Source of the DNA: Rhabdothermincola salaria | GTDB taxonomy: Bacteria; Actinomycetota; Acidimicrobiia; Acidimicrobiales; Acidimicrobilacustridaceae | DNA length: 64,000 bases | Direction of reading: 5' to 3' | Assembly (NCBI RefSeq): GCF_021246445.1 | Contig: NZ_JAJQXW010000001.1 | Span: forward strand, 1,506,168-1,570,167 | Shown here: positions 39,027 through 53,952 of the stretch, in pieces | Layout of the letters: each line of letters starts with the position of its first letter | Position numbering within the stretch: the stretch's first letter is position 1 | The notes under the pieces: generated by a model | What the model was told of the DNA's origin: nothing | What the model saw: only the letters and a program-made list of their open reading frames with translations | Database searches by the model: none | Made by a program: the position numbers and the translations under genes

Positions 39027-39076
39027 GCGGGGTGCAGATCGGCTCCCCGGGCCCGGCGCCCGACCCTGGTCCACCC

Positions 39077-39102
39077 GTATCGGTGCGGGCCCGACGAGCG
39101 AT
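39077..39102 (+). promoter_or_regulatory. Putative ECF sigma promoter (GTATC-N17-CGAT)
   Basis: Same CCGTA(C/T)C...GCG(A/T)T architecture as 39918-39944 and 40582-40607. Confidence 0.5.
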
Positions 39103-39149
39103 GTAGGGCCCTGAGAGGGACCCGCGCCACCGACCGGCGACGCGAGTGC

Positions 39150-39233
39150 GTCTCGACCGACAAGGGCGACCGCACCGGCAACGGGGCGGGAGCAACGCCA
39201 CCGGACCCTCTGGGCCCTGGTGGCTGCCGAAGC
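39150..39233 (+). ncRNA. c-di-GMP-I (GEMM)-like riboswitch variant, copy A
   Basis: CGACAAGGGCGA-CCGCACCG-GCAA-CGGGGCGG-GAGCAAC-GCCACCGG..CTGGTGGC-TGCCGA. GNRA-capped P2, a P3 stem and GEMM-like junctions, ending 25 nt upstream of the ATG. Confidence 0.7.
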
Positions 39234-39258
39234 CGACGATCCCGGGAGGGACCCCACG

Positions 39259-39810
39259 ATGCTCGCTGATCTGCTCACCCACCTCCGTGTGCCGACGAAG
39301 GTGGTGGCGGCCGCGGTGGCCGTCGCCGTCGCCGTCGGCGGGGTGGGCGTCGCCGCCGCGGTGACCTCGGCCGATGACGACGATCCCGCGACCGAGGCCA
39401 CCGAATCGTCGACCACGCTCGACAGCACCACCACCACCGACACCACCGCCTCGACCACGTCGACCACGATCGAGGACGAGGAGGCGACGCTCGAGTCCGA
39501 CGCCGCCGAGGGCCCCGGGGACGAGACTCCGGAGCTGTCCGAGAAGCAGGGCCCACCGGAGGGGAAGGGCCCACCCGAGGGGACCTTCGGTGCCCGGGTC
39601 AGCGCCGATGCCCGCGACGGCGGCGTCGACGGACCCACCATCGCCGCCGAGGCCCGGGCTCGCGCCGCCGAACGCAAGGCCGACCGGGAGAAGGGCCCCG
39701 AGGCACCCGAGGCCGACGACGAGGGCGACCAGAGGGGTGGAGGTCGCCCCGACGGCGCCGGCCCGCCACCATGGGCCGGTCAGCCGGGCGGGCGCCCCGG
39801 CGGCGACTGA
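39259..39810 (+). CDS. Secreted/membrane-anchored low-complexity protein (paralogue A)
   Basis: GGGAGG SD, hydrophobic N-terminus, Thr/Glu-rich linker and the FGARVSADARDGGVDG motif. Confidence 0.8.
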   Translation: MLADLLTHLRVPTKVVAAAVAVAVAVGGVGVAAAVTSADDDDPATEATESSTTLDSTTTTDTTASTTSTTIEDEEATLESDAAEGPGDETPELSEKQGPPEGKGPPEGTFGARVSADARDGGVDGPTIAAEARARAAERKADREKGPEAPEADDEGDQRGGGRPDGAGPPPWAGQPGGRPGGD

Positions 39811-39917
39811 CCCGCCCCGAGTCCCGACATCCGGCTCCTTCGACCGAAGCTGCGGGAGCACGCACCACGGCGGGGACCCCCGGGATCGAACGATGACGGG
39901 CGAACCAGCCTCGGGCC

Positions 39918-39944
39918 GTACCCCTCGACCGCACCGGCGGCGTT
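39918..39944 (+). promoter_or_regulatory. Putative ECF sigma autoregulatory promoter (GTACC-N18-CGTT)
   Basis: CCGTACCCCT...GGCGTTGAC immediately upstream of the sigma gene; repeated at 40582. Confidence 0.6.
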
Positions 39945-39958
39945 GACAGACCCGAGAC

Positions 39959-40573
39959 ATGGGGAGCCCCGAGATTCCGACGGCCGATTCCACCCCTCGG
40001 CGAGCGCTGCGCCTCGGCGCCGCGTTCCCGGAGGTGTTCGACGCAGCCCGCGCCAACGCGCCCTGGGCCTACCAGCGCCTGTTCGACGCGTTCGGCCCCC
40101 TCGTCGCCGGGTACCTGAGGGGCCAGGGAGCCGAGGACCCGGACTCCATGGCGAACGACGTCTTCCTGCGAGCGTTCACCAACCTGGCGACGTTCCACGG
40201 CGACGAAGGCCACTTTCGGTCGTGGTTGTTCACGATCGCACACCACCGACTCGTGGACGACCGTCGGCGCCGATCGCGCCGTCCAGATGTCGTCGACCGT
40301 CCCATCCCGGACCAGCGGGCCACGACCGACACCACCGAGGCGGTCATCGGTCAGCGGTTGGGCGACGAGCGCGTGGCGTCGCTGCTGTCGCGCCTCTCGC
40401 CTGACCAGCGCGACGTCCTCGTCCTGAGGATCGTCGGCGACCTGACCGTCGAGGAGGTGGCGGTGGCCGTCCGCAAGCGGCCCGGTGCAGTGAAGGCCCT
40501 GCAACGCCGCGGTCTCGCCGCGTTGCGACGGATCCTCGAGGCGGAAGACGGGGGTGCCGAGCAGGATTCGTGA
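39959..40573 (+). CDS. ECF RNA polymerase sigma factor
   Basis: Region 2 DVFLRAF...FRSWLFTIAHHRLVD; region 4 LSPDQRDVLVLR...GAVKALQRRGL. Confidence 0.92.
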   Translation: MGSPEIPTADSTPRRALRLGAAFPEVFDAARANAPWAYQRLFDAFGPLVAGYLRGQGAEDPDSMANDVFLRAFTNLATFHGDEGHFRSWLFTIAHHRLVDDRRRRSRRPDVVDRPIPDQRATTDTTEAVIGQRLGDERVASLLSRLSPDQRDVLVLRIVGDLTVEEVAVAVRKRPGAVKALQRRGLAALRRILEAEDGGAEQDS

Positions 40574-40581
40574 GCCGGCCC

Positions 40582-40607
40582 GTACCCCTTCCGGCCCCCT
40601 CGGCGTT
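40582..40607 (+). promoter_or_regulatory. Putative ECF sigma promoter (GTACC-N17-CGTT) for the anti-sigma gene
   Basis: CCGTACCCCT...GGCGTTCAC...CCCGAGATG mirrors the sigma gene's upstream region. Confidence 0.6.
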
Positions 40608-40619
40608 CACTGCCCCGAG

Positions 40620-41402
40620 ATGAGCTTCCGACGACGAGCAGACGAGGTCGACGCCGTACTGGCCGGGACCGCCGACGAGCGTTTGACCGAGGCCGTCGCC
40701 GCCATTCGGACCTCTTTCGCCGATGCCGGTTCCCCGGCGCTGCCGGCCGGCCCGGAACTGGCCGACGTCCTCCTCTCGGGGATCGACACCCCAGCTGCTC
40801 CATCCCCGGCGCCGCTTCCCGGGCCGGGGTCGGAGACGGCGAAGAAGACGGGTACCACGGTCCGCAGCCACCGATCGCGCCGCCTGGTGGTGGCCGGCGT
40901 CCTGGCCGCGGCCCTCGCCACCGGGACCGGTCTCGCCGGGGCGCTGCCCGGACCCGTGCAGAGCGTGTTCGACCGGGCGAGTAGCGCAGTGGGCCTCGAT
41001 CGCACCCCTGCCCCGGAGCCCACGAAACCTGTGGTGCCCGGCGACGACGTGGTCGGCGACGACCCCGCCGAGGACCGGCCGTCGGTGCCATCGACCGAGG
41101 ACGCACCGGGAGCTCCGGTGCCCACCCCGCCCGGTGACGATCCCACGTCCCTGCCGCCGACCCCCGGCGTGCCGGCACCTCCGCCTCGCCCCGAGCCCAC
41201 GGTCCCGGTCGCACCACCCGTGGAACCACCAGGCCCACCGGATCGCACCCCTTCCACGCCGACACCGCCCACACCCGCTGCGCCGCCCGAACCCTCCCCA
41301 CCGCCCACGCCACCCGCAGCCCCCGAACCCCCTTCTCCCGACGCCGCCTCGACGCCGGGAGCCACCGAGCCCCCGTCGCCGACGAGGCCCGACCGACCCT
41401 GA
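40620..41402 (+). CDS. Putative single-pass anti-sigma factor with Pro-rich extracytoplasmic tail
   Basis: Short cytoplasmic N-terminus, one TM segment (LVVAGVLAAALATGTGLAG), LPGPVQ and a Pro-rich C-terminus; directly follows the ECF gene. Confidence 0.7.
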   Translation: MSFRRRADEVDAVLAGTADERLTEAVAAIRTSFADAGSPALPAGPELADVLLSGIDTPAAPSPAPLPGPGSETAKKTGTTVRSHRSRRLVVAGVLAAALATGTGLAGALPGPVQSVFDRASSAVGLDRTPAPEPTKPVVPGDDVVGDDPAEDRPSVPSTEDAPGAPVPTPPGDDPTSLPPTPGVPAPPPRPEPTVPVAPPVEPPGPPDRTPSTPTPPTPAAPPEPSPPPTPPAAPEPPSPDAASTPGATEPPSPTRPDRP

Positions 41403-41439
41403 TCTTCGGCGCCCCGGCGCCGATGACAACGAGACGGAT

Positions 41440-41527
41440 GTCTCGAACGAAAAGGCGACCGCACCGGTGACGGTACGGGAGCAACGCCCTCGGATCTGTC
41501 GCTGACAGACCTCGGGGCTACCGAGGC
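41440..41527 (+). ncRNA. c-di-GMP-I (GEMM)-like riboswitch variant, copy B
   Basis: GTCTCG..CGAAAAGGCGA-CCGCACCG-GTGA-CGGTACGG-GAGCAAC-GCCCTCGG-ATCTGTC-GCT-GACAGAC-CTCGGGGC-TACCGAGGC; ends 30 nt upstream of the ATG. Confidence 0.7.
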
Positions 41528-41557
41528 GAACAACCACCATCCACGGAGGAAACGACC

Positions 41558-42133
41558 ATGATCACCGCAGCCCTCGCAGCACTGGGCATCTCGACCAAGG
41601 TGGCCGCCGCCGCGACCGCAGGCGTCATCGCCGTCGGAGGCCTCGGCGTCGCCGGCGCCGCCATCGTCGACCGTGCCCCTGAAGAGGTGCCCGTCGTCGA
41701 AGCAGGCGACGGCGCACCAGAAACGGTCCGCCAGGATGCCGACCGCCGCCAGGACGCCGAGGCACCCGTCGACCCGACCGAGGAGGTTGCCGACGCGGCC
41801 GTCGAGCCGGTCGCCGAGGGCGACACCGAGGGCGATGGTCCGCCCGAGGACAGCTTCGGCGCCCGCGTGAGCGCCGATGCCCAGGAAGGCGGCGTCGACG
41901 GCCTCGACATCGCCGCCGAGGCACAGGCCAACGCCGCCGCTCGGGCCGAGGCACGGCAGGGTCCGCCAGCCGACCTCCCGGTCCCCCCGGCCGACGTCCC
42001 GGGCCCCCCGGCCGACGTCCCGGGCCCCCCGGCCGACATCCCGGTGCCCCCGGTGCCCCCGGTGCCCACCGACAACCTGCCGGAGACCCCGGCCGGCCCG
42101 CCGGCCGAGACGGGTCGACCCGCCCCGCGCTGA
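41558..42133 (+). CDS. Secreted/membrane-anchored low-complexity protein (paralogue B)
   Basis: GGAGG SD, TKVAAAATAGVIAVGGLGVAG N-terminus, FGARVSADAQEGGVDG motif and Pro-rich repeats. Confidence 0.82.
   Translation: MITAALAALGISTKVAAAATAGVIAVGGLGVAGAAIVDRAPEEVPVVEAGDGAPETVRQDADRRQDAEAPVDPTEEVADAAVEPVAEGDTEGDGPPEDSFGARVSADAQEGGVDGLDIAAEAQANAAARAEARQGPPADLPVPPADVPGPPADVPGPPADIPVPPVPPVPTDNLPETPAGPPAETGRPAPR
41963..42046 (+). repeat. 4 x 21-bp coding tandem repeat (PPAD[L/V/I]P[V/G])
   Basis: CCCCCGGCCGACGTCCCGGGC-type units. Confidence 0.85.
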
Positions 42134-42166
42134 TCCCGCGACGACACCACGATCATCATCAGTTTC

Positions 42167-42196
42167 GACAGGAGGCCCCGGAAGGGGCCTCCTGTC
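42167..42196. terminator. Hairpin terminator between convergent genes
   Basis: GACAGGAGGCCCC-GGAA-GGGGCCTCCTGTC, a 13-bp perfect stem. Confidence 0.8.
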
Positions 42197-43174
42197 CTAT
42201 CTCGGCAGGGTGGCCTGGCCGTACTGCCAGCTCGGCAGCTGTTCGATGCGACTCAGCACCCAGTCGTACTCGCCGGACATGACGGCCACCTTGCAGTAGC
42301 TGCACACGCCGGCGATGTCGAGGTCGAGCGGGGCCCCGCAGTTGGGGCACCGGTCGTCGAGGGTGCCGCCCTCGGGCTTGGTGACCGCCTTCGACGAGCG
42401 CTGGAAGGCCCAGTCCTCGGTCCACGGCTCGACGTTGCGTGACCCGCGCACGACCTTGCCCGGGCTGCCGTCGTCCTTGAGCTCCACGTCGTAGTCGGCG
42501 CAGCTGGCGAAGAACCGCACCGTGATGGTGTCGAAGTGCTCGTCGCTGTTGGCGGACACCAGATAGGTGTTCTGGATGGCCAGGTTGTCGAGCATGTTGC
42601 GGCGGTTGGCGGTGAGGTACTGCTCGATCTGGAAGCGGTGCTGCTGCCAGATCTGCTCGGCCATCACCCGGCGCGACAGGTCGGGCTTGCGCTCGCTCCA
42701 GGCCTGCTGGATGGCGAAGAACGCCTTGTTGACCTCGTTGACGAACAGGTTGGGGTCGAAGGCCGGGTCGTGGGCCTGGATCTGGGCGATGCCGGCCTCG
42801 AGGTCGGCCCGGGTGGTGGCGTGCTGGCGCGACGCGTCGGTGCCGGCCAGGTAGGCGCCGCTGGTGGTGGTGGCGGGCTGGGTGGGCATGCCGCCGCGGC
42901 CCCGGTGAGCGGCGATGAACACCGACCAGATGATGAAGGCGGTGAAGCCGCCGCCGAAGAGCAGGAAGAACAACAACCCGCCCCCTGCCGCACCGACGCC
43001 CGACCCGCTGGAGAAGCCACCACCGGAGAAGCCACCGCCACCGGAGAAGCCGCCACCGCCGGAGAAGCCACCGCCGCCGGAGAAGCCACCACCGGTGCCC
43101 CCACCGGCGCGGAACCACAGCGACGGCAGGTCGACCATGGCCAGGCGCGTCAGATCGAGGAGCGGTGCGAGCAC
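42197..43174 (-). CDS. Tim44-like domain membrane protein with Gly-rich N-terminus and C-terminal Zn ribbon
   Basis: RAGGG.., a TM segment, DPAFDPNLF..AFFAIQQAWS, EDWAFQR and CPNCGAP..CSYC. Start could be ATG 43138. Confidence 0.8.
   Translation of the reverse strand: MLAPLLDLTRLAMVDLPSLWFRAGGGTGGGFSGGGGFSGGGGFSGGGGFSGGGFSSGSGVGAAGGGLLFFLLFGGGFTAFIIWSVFIAAHRGRGGMPTQPATTTSGAYLAGTDASRQHATTRADLEAGIAQIQAHDPAFDPNLFVNEVNKAFFAIQQAWSERKPDLSRRVMAEQIWQQHRFQIEQYLTANRRNMLDNLAIQNTYLVSANSDEHFDTITVRFFASCADYDVELKDDGSPGKVVRGSRNVEPWTEDWAFQRSSKAVTKPEGGTLDDRCPNCGAPLDLDIAGVCSYCKVAVMSGEYDWVLSRIEQLPSWQYGQATLPR
43010..43094 (-). repeat. Coding tandem repeat GGG(G)FS x5 (mostly 18-bp period)
   Basis: GAGAAGCC recurs at 43011, 43026, 43044, 43062 and 43080. 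Confidence 0.85.
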
Positions 43175-43181
43175 GAGGTGG

Positions 43182-44396
43182 TCAGCCCTCTCCGTCGGTG
43201 TCGTCGGTCTCGGACCCGTCGCCCTCGGGAGCGGTGGTGTCCGTCGTCGGTTCCGCCCCGGCGGATGCCTCGGCGGGCGAGTCGCCTCCCGGCTCGGCCA
43301 CCGCGGTCCCGCAGTGGGCGCAGAACTTGGCGCCGGCGACGAGCTCGTTGCCGCACTCGGCGCAGAACCGGGCCTGGGCCACGGGTGTGCCGCACTGGGC
43401 GCAGAACTTCGCACCCGGCGGGGTGGCCGCCCCGCACCCGGTGCAGGCGGGCCCCGCGGCGGACGCGGCGCCACCGGCGCCGGCTCCCTGGGCGGCGAAG
43501 CCCTCGCCACCGCCGGCGAAGCCCGGAGCCGCCGGCGGCATGGGTCCCTGCCCGGGCTGGTTCATCTGGTTGGCCATGCCCATGCCCACCCCCAGGAAGG
43601 CGGCACCGGTGCCGGCCCCGCCGCCCTTGGCCATGCCCTCGCCGGCGCCGAGGAGCGCTTCGCCCTGGGCGTACTGCTGGAAGCCACCGGCCAGGCGGCT
43701 GTAGGCGGTGTCCTTGGCCAGCTTCTTGAGGGTGGCCTGGTCCTCGGCGGAGAGGTTGAGATCGAAGTTGCCCATGCGGGCGACGGCCAGGCCGTAGTCA
43801 GCGATCTGTTCGTTGGTGGCCGCGATGACAGCCTGCTCGATCTCGGGGGTGTAGGCCGAGAGCCCGAGCACCGGCCAGTTGTGCCCCACGATCTGGCGGG
43901 TGACCTCGGTGCGCATCACCTTGACCATCTGCTGCTCGACCCAGTCGGTGATGTGGTCGTTGTCGGGCACGTCGATGGTGCCGACCAGGTTGAGCACCAG
44001 CTTGGCGGGGTCGGTGACCCGGAAGCTGTACTCACCGAACACCCCGAGCGTGACGATGTTGCCGGTCTGGGGGTCCTGGACGTCGTCGATGCGGCCGCCG
44101 AAGCGCTCGCTCGTGTACTCGCGGGTGCCCACGAAGAAGAGCTCGGCCCGGTAGGCGTTGCCGTCGGTGGCCCAGTCGATGACCGCACCGAGACCCATGA
44201 TCTCGTCGGCCTCGACCCGGTGCTGGCCCGGCCCGAGCGTCCCGACGACCTCGCCCTTGTTCACGAAGAGGGCCAGCATGTCGGGCTCGACGATCAGGCG
44301 GCTGCCCTTGCGCAGGTTGATGTCAGGCCACTTGAAGAGGACCTGATCCTTCTTGTCGTCGGGGACGGCGATGAAGACCCGGCCGAGTATCGCCAC
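43182..44396 (-). CDS. SPFH (YdjI-like) domain protein with C-terminal double zinc ribbon
   Basis: KWPD..GSRLIV..ALFVNKG..GPG.H and FGEYSFRVTDP; CTGC/CAQC/CAEC/CAHC pairs; GAGG SD. Confidence 0.85.
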   Translation of the reverse strand: MAILGRVFIAVPDDKKDQVLFKWPDINLRKGSRLIVEPDMLALFVNKGEVVGTLGPGQHRVEADEIMGLGAVIDWATDGNAYRAELFFVGTREYTSERFGGRIDDVQDPQTGNIVTLGVFGEYSFRVTDPAKLVLNLVGTIDVPDNDHITDWVEQQMVKVMRTEVTRQIVGHNWPVLGLSAYTPEIEQAVIAATNEQIADYGLAVARMGNFDLNLSAEDQATLKKLAKDTAYSRLAGGFQQYAQGEALLGAGEGMAKGGGAGTGAAFLGVGMGMANQMNQPGQGPMPPAAPGFAGGGEGFAAQGAGAGGAASAAGPACTGCGAATPPGAKFCAQCGTPVAQARFCAECGNELVAGAKFCAHCGTAVAEPGGDSPAEASAGAEPTTDTTAPEGDGSETDDTDGEG

Positions 44397-44544
44397 AGAC
44401 ACCACCTCACAGGAACGACACGCCCGGACGGGCGGGTCCGGTGCCCAGGGTACTTCCCGACCCCACCCACCCGCGGGTGCTTCGCCGAGAGCCTCCGTCG
44501 GGGTGACCTCGGAGTCCCCGGAGGGCCCCGGTAGATTCGCCGGT

Positions 44545-46113
44545 GTGACGACAGGTGGCCCCCCTCCTCTCCCCGCGCCCTTCGACCCCGGTCGCCGGCG
44601 CTTCCTGGTGCTCGGCGGCACGGCCGCCCTGGCGGCCGCCGTGGCCGCCACCGGCTGCAGTCCCTTCGGGGGCGACGAGTCGAGCACCACGGTGAGCGTG
44701 ACCGAACCGATCCGCCCGATCCCACCGTCGATGCCCGGGGCCGAGCCGCCCCCTCCGGCCGGGTTCGTCTTCGACACGGTCATCAAGGGTGGACGGGTCA
44801 TCGACCCCGACTCGGGCTTCGACACCATCGCCGACGTCGGGATCACGGGAGACCGCATCACCTCGATCTCCCTCGAGCCCCTGCAGGGCACCACCACCCT
44901 CGACGCCACCGGCAAGGTGGTCGCCCCGGGCTTCGTCGACCTGCTCTCCTACGAGCCCAACTCCTTCGGCACCTGGTACAAGATCGGCGACGGGGTCACC
45001 ACCAACCTCGGGATGCACGGCATCAAGGCCCCCACCGACGCCGGCCAGTTCTTCGCGCAGTACGGGGGCACCAGCCCGGTGCACTTCGGCGGCGCCTTCT
45101 CCGACCAGTGGTTCCGCGAGACCATCGGCATCTACGACACGGCCAGCGCATCGCAGCTCTCACGCCTGCGCGATGCCCTCGACCAGCAGATCGACGCCGG
45201 CTTCATCGGGGTGGCCATCGACCCGGAGTACGCCCCCTACATCGACTTCGCCGAGTACGTCGCCCTGGGCGAGGTGGCCCGCGACGCGGGCGTGCCGCTG
45301 TTCACCCACATCCGCTACTCCAGCCCGGACCCGCCCGAAGCCAACTCCATCTCGGCCATCGAGGAGGTCATCCGCGTCGCCGAGCAGTCCGGCGTGTCGC
45401 TCCACGTCGACCACATCCCGTCGATGGCCACGCACGTCATGAGCGAGGCCATGTCCCTGCTCGACGACGCCCGCGGGCAGGGCCTCGACGTGACCGGCTG
45501 CTTCTACCCCTACACGTACTGGGGCACCTACCTCGGCTCGGCCCGCTTCAACGGCGACTGGCAGTCCCGCTTCCGGATCACCTACGAGGACCTGCAGGTC
45601 GCCGGCACCTCCGAGCGGGTCACCGCCCAGACCTTCGGCACGTACCAGGCCCAGAACAAGCTGGTCGTCGCCTACGCCATGCCCCAGGCGGACATCAACG
45701 CCGCCGCGTCGGCCTCGTGGACCATGGTCGGCTCGGACTCCATCCCCGAGCCCGCCGACAACAACCACCCGCGAGGGGCGGGCTGCTTCGCCCGCCTGGT
45801 GGGCCCGTACGTCCGAGAGCTGGGGGTGCTGTCGCTCAACGACGCCATCGCCAAGGCCACCATCATCCCCACCAAGCGGGTCGAGAAGGTCGTCCCCCTC
45901 ATGCAGCGCAAGGGCCGCCTCCAGATGGGGGCCGACGCCGACATCACCGTCTTCGACCCAGCCACGGTCGCCGACAGGTCCACCGTCGAGGATCCGTCGA
46001 TCATGTCGGCGGGCATCGAGCAGGTCCTCGTCATGGGCGGCCTGGTCAAGAACGGCGACCAGCTCGACACGTCGCTGCTGAACGGCCAGGGCATCAAAGG
46101 CGAGCCCCTGTAG
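44545..46113 (+). CDS. Tat-exported lipoprotein amidohydrolase (D-aminoacylase/dihydroorotase-like, atypical metal motif)
   Basis: RRRFL twin-Arg signal plus TGC lipobox; IKGGRVIDP, PGFVD, GSD, HPRGAG and KGRLQMGADADITVFD. Confidence 0.82.
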   Translation: MTTGGPPPLPAPFDPGRRRFLVLGGTAALAAAVAATGCSPFGGDESSTTVSVTEPIRPIPPSMPGAEPPPPAGFVFDTVIKGGRVIDPDSGFDTIADVGITGDRITSISLEPLQGTTTLDATGKVVAPGFVDLLSYEPNSFGTWYKIGDGVTTNLGMHGIKAPTDAGQFFAQYGGTSPVHFGGAFSDQWFRETIGIYDTASASQLSRLRDALDQQIDAGFIGVAIDPEYAPYIDFAEYVALGEVARDAGVPLFTHIRYSSPDPPEANSISAIEEVIRVAEQSGVSLHVDHIPSMATHVMSEAMSLLDDARGQGLDVTGCFYPYTYWGTYLGSARFNGDWQSRFRITYEDLQVAGTSERVTAQTFGTYQAQNKLVVAYAMPQADINAAASASWTMVGSDSIPEPADNNHPRGAGCFARLVGPYVRELGVLSLNDAIAKATIIPTKRVEKVVPLMQRKGRLQMGADADITVFDPATVADRSTVEDPSIMSAGIEQVLVMGGLVKNGDQLDTSLLNGQGIKGEPL

Positions 46114-53876: not shown

Positions 53877-53952
53877 GCCCCCATCGTCTAGCGGCCTAGG
53901 ACACCACCCTCTCAAGGTGGCGGCACGGGTTCGAATCCCGTTGGGGGTGCCA
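53877..53952 (+). tRNA. tRNA-Glu (anticodon CTC)
   Basis: GCCCCCA/TGGGGGT acceptor stem, CCACC-CTCTCAA-GGTGG anticodon arm, GGTTCGAATCC T arm and encoded CCA; TATGCT -10 upstream. Confidence 0.97.

Follow-up and report, generated by a model that had tools for sequence, protein, structure and literature searches.

Two of the closest known systems are described by Rfam models, c-di-GMP-I (RF01051, gathering threshold of 35 bits) and c-di-GMP-I-GGC (RF03167 of clan CL00126, threshold of 59 bits). Within GEMM-I, the switch to c-AMP-GMP specificity involves the G20 position. In the Vc2 RNA, G20, A47 and C92 are ligand contacts and an interhelical Watson-Crick pair, C44-G83, is described as universally conserved in GEMM RNAs (both PMC4744006). 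C44 of Vc2 is the pairing partner of G83, which also stacks on A49, and ITC detects no ligand binding by the mutants G83C and C44G/G83C (PMC11705072). The c-AMP-GMP riboswitches (GEMM-Ib) are rare variants within GEMM-I that can sense a different cyclic dinucleotide (PMC7266159).

Two related elements are present on the forward strand of the window, the 64,000-nucleotide stretch of Rhabdothermincola salaria DNA analysed here. An earlier note on this DNA had described them as two copies of a variant GEMM-I-like riboswitch, and both were recovered: copy A at 39150-39233 and copy B at 41440-41527, identified from sequence, two-copy alignment, fold and RNAalifold. They share 85% mean column identity across 94 columns, including the identical blocks GGCGACCGCACCGG and CGGGAGCAACGCC, and are the only such places in the 3.9-Mb genome, as judged by a 35-nt pattern with up to three mismatches (reversed-pattern control: 0) and by the covariance model R2 (see below) at E<=1. 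Copy A begins with the P1 5' strand (39150-39157), after which come J1/2 up to 39165 (the G20 equivalent), P2 (39166-39193, GCAA loop at 39178-39181), J2/3 (AAC, 39194-39196), P3 (39197-39224), J3/1 (UGCCGAA, 39225-39231, with the C92 equivalent at 39227) and the P1 3' strand (39228-39237); P1 can form in either of two registers. Copy B consists of P1 (GUCUCG, 41440-41445; CGAGGC, 41522-41527), J1/2 up to 41454 (the G20 equivalent), P2 (41455-41482, GUGA loop at 41467-41470), J2/3 (AAC, 41483-41485), P3 (41486-41518) and J3/1 from 41519 (C92 equivalent: 41521).

Each copy is predicted to fold into P1, a GNRA-capped P2 and P3. The P2 tetraloops differ and P3 changes in sequence while remaining fully paired, both as previously claimed: RNAalifold gives 22 common pairs, two of which (both in P3) are altered on both sides yet paired. 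A 2-nt insertion in P2 extends the helix and does not break it. As read from sequence, P3 of the window copies lacks the internal loops typical of the R2 family, while P2 keeps its GNRA loop, and copy B lacks the family register of P1. Folding energy is by itself weak evidence for structure, with z-scores of -1.23 (copy A) and -3.14 (copy B).

Copies A and B precede two related small-protein genes beside a sigma/putative anti-sigma pair. The distance to the start codon is 25 nt for copy A and 30 nt for copy B, in agreement with the 25-30 nt first given. Copy A is followed by the Shine-Dalgarno (SD)-like sequence GGGAGGG (39244-39250) and the ATG (39259-39261) of small protein A (183 aa, 39259-39810, forward strand), and copy B by GGAGGA (41545-41550) and the ATG (41558-41560) of small protein B (191 aa, 41558-42133, forward strand). 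The proteins are paralogous, as had been proposed (BLASTP: 55% identity over 49 aa, E-value: 4e-10), with a common N-terminal hydrophobic anchor. Protein A continues with an acidic/Thr-rich linker and a conserved FGARVSADARDGGVDG segment, and protein B carries FGARVSADAQEGGVDG. One homologue of protein B was found (68% identity), and no convincing orthologue in the same-genus genomes.

The ECF sigma factor (39959-40573, forward strand) has the Pfam domains Sigma70_r2, Sigma70_r4_2 and Sigma70_ECF. In NCBIfam it comes closest to the ShbA and BldN families, in each case under cut-off, and its best solved chain is 6dxo_A (E-value: 4.2e-13). It is not conserved in same-genus genomes, where the top match is 31% identical. 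Protein X (40620-41402, forward strand), a putative anti-sigma factor by position and architecture, has an N-terminal segment, a single hydrophobic span and a Pro-rich tail. Because neither Pfam nor NCBIfam assigns a family to either small protein, to protein X or to the long ORFs of the relatives described below, and a search of the PDB with a relative's long ORF gave no meaningful match, "anti-sigma" is here a label by position alone. The 3.1-kb module is absent from two same-genus genomes and so may be recent. A scan for promoters and terminators returned 0 sites of either kind.

The window copies receive no score from any Rfam model, even when slices of ~106 nt are searched at E<=10. The RF01051 search that the earlier note proposed gives no match to either copy, in gathering mode or at E<=10 (2.7 kb; ~106-nt slices), and none anywhere in the host genome; RF03167 likewise has no match in the host genome at E<=10. 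A covariance model built from the two copies (R1), as the note had suggested, gave only three weak matches outside the host genome among 151 genomes, which were set aside (L005 and L006 lie inside ordinary ORFs; the third is L004). Model R2, built from 14 subgroup sequences with copies A and B among the seeds, detects the family in 39 of the 151 genomes of the same order at E<=1e-3.

The reading of the element as species-specific, first suggested by R1, was wrong. The matches listed from a loose pattern scan are due to chance (at most 23 bits on R1), the best of them, L044, being a hairpin between convergent genes. L140, L142, L159 and L182 were left out as chance pattern matches that lack the J1/2 string.

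Ten R2 matches of at least 73 bits occur in nine of the 150 other genomes searched. The window copies, themselves R2 seed sequences, have the lowest scores within the subgroup (65.4 bits for A and 65.7 bits for B). R2 matches at 38-57 bits are canonical GEMM-I RNAs of the same order that exceed the threshold of RF01051 or RF03167 (RF01051: 62.9-66.6 bits; RF03167: 61.2-68.9 bits, above threshold for several copies). RF01051 is also passed by three of 20 subgroup loci (L200, 50.1 bits; L141, 40.4 bits; L187, 38.5 bits). RF03167 is the top-scoring Rfam model for the subgroup, with six of 12 loci at 27-53 bits, all of them below 59 bits. In a tree of 87 columns, copies A and B pair together, adjoining L146, within the subgroup. 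As the window copies have no Rfam score of their own and homology is traced via the subgroup and canonical intermediates, the sequence comparisons identify them as a divergent GEMM-I lineage whose link to the class is indirect. This agrees with the lineage-specific variant of the GEMM-I architecture that the earlier note had suggested.

Covariation among the relatives supports the predicted three-helix P1/P2/P3 fold. In the subgroup alignment (21 sequences), 89.2% of cells are paired vs 79.7% when shuffled (0 of 500 reach the observed value) and 28-47% when slid, and in the alignment of all 60 sequences 85.3% are paired vs 67.0%; as the model guided both alignments, the counts are biased towards structure. 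Homologues with covarying stems, on which the riboswitch claim had been made to depend, are found, 17 of 26 pairs in the subgroup being altered on both sides. At one pair of P2, 11 of the 21 sequences have U-A and the other 10 have C-G, with no unpaired case; at one pair of P3, 12 sequences have C-G and nine have U-A. About 25 junction nucleotides are near-invariant, also in copies that no longer code (A, B, L144 and L222). The P2 loops of relatives are GUGA, GCGA or GAAA, with L144 as the exception.

The aptamer of 15 relatives is an in-frame part of the gene that follows an ECF sigma gene. In the P2 strings of these relatives, the Thr codon is ACA in all 10 cases with U as the partner base and ACG in all four with C; one further relative with C has AAG. 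Pairing in the in-frame relatives thus seems to be retained through synonymous sites. Two of them, L197 and L198, have CCAAC instead of CCGAA in J3/1, and L197 has no internal ATG, so some members may be coding sequence only. To our knowledge, clear riboswitch-type folds under joint coding and structural selection are rare; the 15 in-frame loci appear to provide such a case. Protein X aligns with the long ORFs of relatives but is gapped at the aptamer-encoded stretch. The window copies are off frame (intervals of 26 and 41 or 36 nt). Their frame is broken yet the pairing survives, which suggests that selection acts on the RNA. The ORF-embedded location beside ECF sigma genes, typical of the subgroup, is absent from the earlier note.

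The proposed model, which we consider reasonably probable, is that copies A and B are divergent GEMM-I members, derived from duplicated anti-sigma 3' parts that became leaders, kept their fold and would sense a dinucleotide. Its parts are as follows. The subgroup is spread through this high-GC order, and its aptamer normally directly precedes a conserved SD and AUG; its usual host gene encodes a single-pass membrane protein, the putative anti-sigma factor, after an ECF sigma gene. Here, the 3' part of such a gene was seemingly duplicated twice together with its embedded aptamer, giving the stand-alone membrane-anchored small proteins A and B that flank the sigma/anti-sigma pair. The former coding stretch would have become a 5' leader in which the frame decayed and the RNA fold was retained. 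The RNA may bind a cyclic dinucleotide, most simply c-di-GMP, as the genome has many GGDEF genes (23 matches). Ligand binding would stabilise P1 and alter access to the ribosome-binding site. Both the ligand, c-di-GMP or another, and this translational mechanism are inferred; the earlier note had likewise put forward an altered ligand or affinity and action on translation with reservations.

The subgroup resembles c-di-GMP-I in its three-helix layout with a GNRA-capped P2 beside P3, in the junction strings (A)AAGGC..., ...GCAA(A/C)GCC... and ...GGCU(A/G)CCGAA, which occur in the same order, and in its equivalents of G20, A47 and C92; canonical members are found in the same bacterial order. It differs in the P2 internal loop (GA/GA instead of AA(A)/(G)AC), in having A at the C44 position and C at A49, and in its usual location within an ORF after an ECF sigma gene, unlike the canonical copies of the order, which lie in the 5' UTR of CAP-domain and glycosidase genes. 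In the RF03167 consensus, G follows the 3' GC of P2 at the A47 position (GCGAAgCc), whereas the window copies have A. Unlike in the c-AMP-GMP riboswitches, G20 is unchanged in the subgroup. Columns 24, 60 and 144, which correspond to G20, A47 and C92 by alignment to canonical members and not by a solved structure, hold G, A and C without exception in the 25 variant and the 35 canonical rows, so these bases are kept, as had been read from the two copies.

The departures common to both copies at C44 and A49, also pointed out at the outset, hold against canonical relatives. At the C44 position, which immediately precedes the 3' GC of P2, all 20 subgroup rows have A, both window copies included, and 33 of 35 canonical rows have C; the exceptions, L202 and L205, have A together with the variant junction. 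It is also A in L220, a probable false positive. The G83 equivalent is G in 13 and U in seven subgroup rows, and a search of these rows for compensating covariation for the lost C44-G83 pair gave no clear pattern. At the A49 position (the third base of J2/3), C is found in all 25 rows of the looser variant set vs A in 27 of 35 canonical rows. With C44 replaced by A in the subgroup and C44-G83 needed in Vc2, c-di-GMP binding cannot be assumed. The linked changes would remodel the tertiary module beside the pocket, such that an RNA of the same fold and ancestry would sense another nucleotide signal, or bind with greatly changed affinity. Such a change would fit the loss of binding in Vc2 C44-G83 pair mutants (PMC11705072), the precedent of GEMM-I variants for c-AMP-GMP (PMC7266159) and the ECF sigma/anti-sigma context that sets the subgroup apart from canonical copies. 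It is nevertheless unlikely: the three direct ligand-contact positions are unaltered, five of 35 canonical rows have C at the A49 position while retaining C44, and the gene context yields no candidate ligand.

Relatives such as L141 have their SD within the P1 3' strand, where its modelled mean P(unpaired) is 0.19. Since this strand is the SD itself, an OFF switch is suggested for the relatives; the P1 5' strand of copy A can instead pair close to the SD, as would be expected of an ON switch. Enforcing P1 raises the modelled mean P(unpaired) of the copy A SD from 0.39 to 0.57 and leaves that of copy B unchanged (0.42 vs 0.40); with a small effect in A and none in B, the modelling is not decisive. 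The fold might also act without any ligand, by hiding or exposing the downstream ribosome-binding site or by setting mRNA stability, with its GEMM-I ancestry merely historical; its role in relatives would be to adjust internal initiation, or coupling, inside the anti-sigma gene. The identity of the P1 3' strand with the SD in most relatives, a P1 that is stable without ligand (modelled for L141), the location of the element within an ORF in 15 loci (an unusual site for a ligand sensor) and the loss of a universal contact are all consistent with this. We regard it as distinctly improbable, however, because a plain occluding hairpin needs neither ~25 near-invariant junction nucleotides nor a GNRA loop on P2.

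The RNA is better conserved than the genes: identity is 85% between the leaders and 55%, over only 49 aa, between the downstream proteins. The copy A leader retains family peptide fragments in shifted frames (STDKGD, then GSNATGP..LPK). These fragments, the possibly recent origin of the module and the lowest R2 scores of the subgroup would suit leaders that are decaying anti-sigma coding remnants, duplicated with the small genes and lacking RNA function here, but this is very unlikely given how much better the leaders are conserved than the adjacent genes, the full pairing of a P3 that differs between copies, a P2 insertion that adds to the helix and the same junctions in the other non-coding copies, L144 and L222.

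The favoured model, in which the copies are functional GEMM-I leaders, would link cyclic-dinucleotide signalling to an ECF sigma/anti-sigma system in a poorly studied bacterial group. It could be taken further, though only tentatively and with the balance against it. A GEMM-I-derived aptamer within the ECF anti-sigma coding sequence might be translated as a juxtamembrane linker and also act as a ligand-sensing RNA that gates an internal start codon, such that a cyclic dinucleotide, or a new ligand in view of the remodelled C44/A49 module, determines how much full-length anti-sigma factor is made relative to an N-terminally truncated membrane protein. The two stand-alone genes of the window would then be the truncated product made independent. 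If true, this embedded ligand-gated start would connect second-messenger signalling with ECF sigma signalling at the RNA level. A description of these elements was not found in the literature, in a search that did not cover the text of the key 2017 riboswitch-variant paper. Rfam annotation misses the window elements completely, though the subgroup occurs in many genomes of the order. The subgroup may be a new specificity class. As it alters a "universal" GEMM-I tertiary contact and retains the ligand-contact bases, it offers a natural test of binding requirements.

Both window copies may also have an upstream hairpin, P0. That of copy B (CGAGAC GGAU GUCUCG, 41430-41445, forward strand) is present in the unconstrained minimum-energy fold (-48.5 kcal/mol vs -45.6 kcal/mol with P1 enforced) and competes with P1. 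A possible P0 of copy A (CGAG/CUCG, 39144-39155, forward strand), read from the sequence, would occupy the 5' strand of P1 and so compete with it. Conservation between the copies begins at this region in the two-copy alignment, and the copy A hairpin is a weaker analogue of that of copy B.

Two RNA leader elements, copy A (39150-39233, + strand) and copy B (41440-41527, + strand), each end 25-30 nt upstream of the ATG of a small-protein gene. These genes (small protein A, 39259-39810; small protein B, 41558-42133; both + strand) are paralogues with 55% identity across just 49 aa, a divergence far exceeding that of their leaders (85% column identity in the alignment, with long identical blocks). 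A 35-nt pattern derived from both copies, with up to three mismatches allowed, is found at just these two sites in the 3.9-Mb genome; the reversed pattern, used as a control, had 0 matches. Both copies fold into P1, a GNRA-capped P2 (loop GCAA in copy A, GUGA in copy B) and P3. They have 22 pairs in common, two of which (both in P3) are altered on both sides with pairing intact.

Two further + strand genes lie between the small-protein genes. The first (39959-40573) encodes an ECF sigma factor with the Pfam domains Sigma70_r2, r4_2 and ECF. Its nearest solved chain is 6dxo_A; among NCBIfam families, ShbA and BldN come closest, both under cut-off. The second (40620-41402) encodes protein X, for which no family was matched. 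This 3.1-kb module of four genes (39030-42190) is absent from G002 and G004, two genomes of the same genus in which the flanking TetR-family and Tim44-like genes adjoin (~45 nt apart), indicating either insertion in the window genome or loss in G002/G004. In the compared genomes G001 and G003, the region past the Tim44-like gene differs. In the window, the Tim44-like gene and an SPFH/Band-7 gene are arranged head to tail on the minus strand (42197-44915), with zinc-ribbon tails; their longest ORFs, which are predictions with tentative start codons, overlap by ~330 nt.

By the standard test, the window copies are not members of RF01051 (c-di-GMP-I, GEMM-I) or RF03167 (the c-di-GMP-I-GGC variant). 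At Rfam 15 gathering thresholds, a tRNA gene (53877-53949, 60.4 bits) is the sole match in the whole window. c-di-GMP-I had no match at E<=10 on either 2.7 kb or ~106-nt slices for each copy, and neither RF01051 nor RF03167 matched anything across the whole genome at E<=10.

The earlier note had proposed a covariance model of both copies as a search tool. Built from these two sequences alone, the model (R1) gave just three weak matches outside the window's genome in 151 genomes, two of them inside ordinary ORFs. A loose pattern scan yielded noise. A stricter three-block pattern over metagenome contigs identified nine loci, seven of which have the element (four distinct sequences, with an identical motif at three loci; 34-40 bits on R1). 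Five of these seven elements have an ECF sigma homologue on one side and a small-protein homologue on the other. Scanning 401 genomes of the order and 301 of the class with patterns provided eight further elements, picked by eye; one from an unpublished genome was left out and one is from outside the order. At E<=1e-3, R2, a model of P1, P2 and P3 from 14 sequences, has matches in 39/151 genomes of the order, with up to six copies per genome; this tally counts G000 and one unpublished genome.

The 60 aligned R2 matches split into two groups by score and signature. The high-scoring group (72-112 bits) has the window signature GGCGACC, hairpin, (N)(N)A-GCAACG(C/U)C; the window copies bear this signature yet reach just 65-66 bits. 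The low-scoring group (38-57 bits) has the Rfam-consensus reading GGCAAACC, hairpin, GGGAC-GCAAAGCC, and its members are over the Rfam threshold (62.9-66.6 bits on RF01051, 61.2-68.9 bits on RF03167). The subgroup of window-type relatives reaches 27-53 bits at best on RF03167 (6/12 loci tested), and 3/20 pass RF01051 in gathering mode. A tree on 87 columns, a short alignment read for topology only, parts the variant from the canonical group and pairs the window copies beside locus L146, within the subgroup. The window elements are thus diverged members of the GEMM-I lineage, forming a branch of it. The GEMM-I likeness proposed earlier fails as a direct RF01051 match and stands through these intermediates; the proposal of a lineage-specific variant is borne out. 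The feature is real, homologous to GEMM-I and outside current models; its genomic neighbourhood is distinctive, and a tertiary contact is altered.

Pair counts agree with the fold, with the reservation that each alignment was made by fitting to the model, which biases it towards structure: 89.2% of cells are paired in the 21 subgroup sequences (shuffled 79.7%, with 0/500 attaining 89.2%; slid 28-47%) and 85.3% in all 60 (shuffled 67.0%; slid 28-43%), with both-side changes at 17/26 and 21/26 pairs, respectively.

PMC4744006 names G20, A47 and C92 as the ligand contacts of the GEMM-I RNA Vc2. The aligned columns are invariant in 25/25 variant and 35/35 canonical rows. The A49 position (third J2/3 base) is C in 25/25 variant rows versus A in 27/35 canonical rows. 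The C44 position (the base 5' of the P2 3' GC) is A in 20/20 subgroup rows and C in 33/35 rows classed as canonical; L202 and L205 depart from this, with A at the position and also the variant junction. L220, a probable false positive, has A here too. The C44-G83 pair is described as universally conserved in GEMM (PMC4744006). The Vc2 mutants G83C and C44G/G83C are reported to show no binding by ITC, and G83 to stack on A49 (PMC11705072). Both changes specific to the subgroup therefore fall within a single tertiary module. The genome has 23 GGDEF matches and so has enzymes that make c-di-GMP.

Canonical copies in the order sit upstream of CAP-domain (PF00188) protein genes (8/18 downstream proteins tested) or of GH5 and GHL15 glycosidase genes, whereas the subgroup mostly follows ECF sigma genes. 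The CAP-domain loci are L202, L210, L212, L213, L216, L217, L218 and L224, and the CAP proteins are secreted. Literature searches at abstract level turned up no paper that puts a c-di-GMP riboswitch inside or next to an anti-sigma gene; the published alignments of the GGC variant may overlap with this subgroup.

Fifteen loci of the subgroup have an ECF sigma homologue, 40-70% identical to the one in the window, whose end lies ~190-270 nt 5' of the aptamer; at seven other loci tested, the available flanking sequence revealed none. At these 15 loci a single open frame runs from the end of the sigma gene, through the aptamer, into a membrane anchor. The three intervals that separate the conserved blocks are each divisible by three despite their varied length (36, 39, 42 or 51 nt; 21 to 39 nt except in L197, which is without a nearby ATG). 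The protein sequences encoded 5' of the aptamer are homologous and matched no Pfam or NCBIfam family. In P2, a Thr codon reads ACA in the 10 sequences with partner U and ACG in four of the five with partner C (the fifth has AAG), and the third base of the adjacent Ala codon is paired in 15/15 sequences. Pairing is thus upheld by codon choice. In copies A and B, L144, L222, L181 and L202, the frame is broken and the fold and junction sequences are kept. Protein X aligns to the long anti-sigma-like ORFs of relatives with a gap exactly at the aptamer-encoded segment. Taken together, these observations point to selection acting on the RNA. They also suggest that the window small-protein genes are duplicated 3' parts of an aptamer-bearing long-ORF gene, this being the direction of history that we infer. 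Two in-frame loci, L197 and L198, count against a uniform RNA role: both have CCAAC in J3/1 versus the otherwise near-invariant CCGAA, and L197 has no internal ATG. These may be aptamers degenerated into plain coding sequence. The close relatives L199 (G146) and L181 (G302) are distinguished by a frameshift just 5' of where MMITEFLAGL starts: the upstream frame continues in register in L199, whereas in L181 it stops at an ATGA that overlaps the start codon. This suggests that translation in this lineage begins at the MMITEFLAGL Met.

The proposed regulatory mechanism is as follows. In most relatives, the P1 3' strand (GUGGAGG...) is the Shine-Dalgarno (SD) sequence, 20-24 nt upstream of a conserved AUG, with a modelled accessibility of 0.19; ligand-stabilised P1 would repress initiation in these relatives. 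The pyrimidine-rich P1 5' strand of copy A, L179 and L187 has two possible partners, the 3' strand and a site near the SD, and enforcing P1 raises modelled SD accessibility (0.39 to 0.57, 0.45 to 0.61 and 0.57 to 0.78, respectively). Modelling gives no SD effect for copy B. A scan for promoters and terminators detected neither. Just upstream, each window copy has a predicted P0 hairpin that uses the P1 5' strand (copy A, 39144-39155, 4 bp; copy B, 41430-41445, 6 bp). The copy B hairpin beats P1 in the unconstrained fold, and P0 may be part of the switch.
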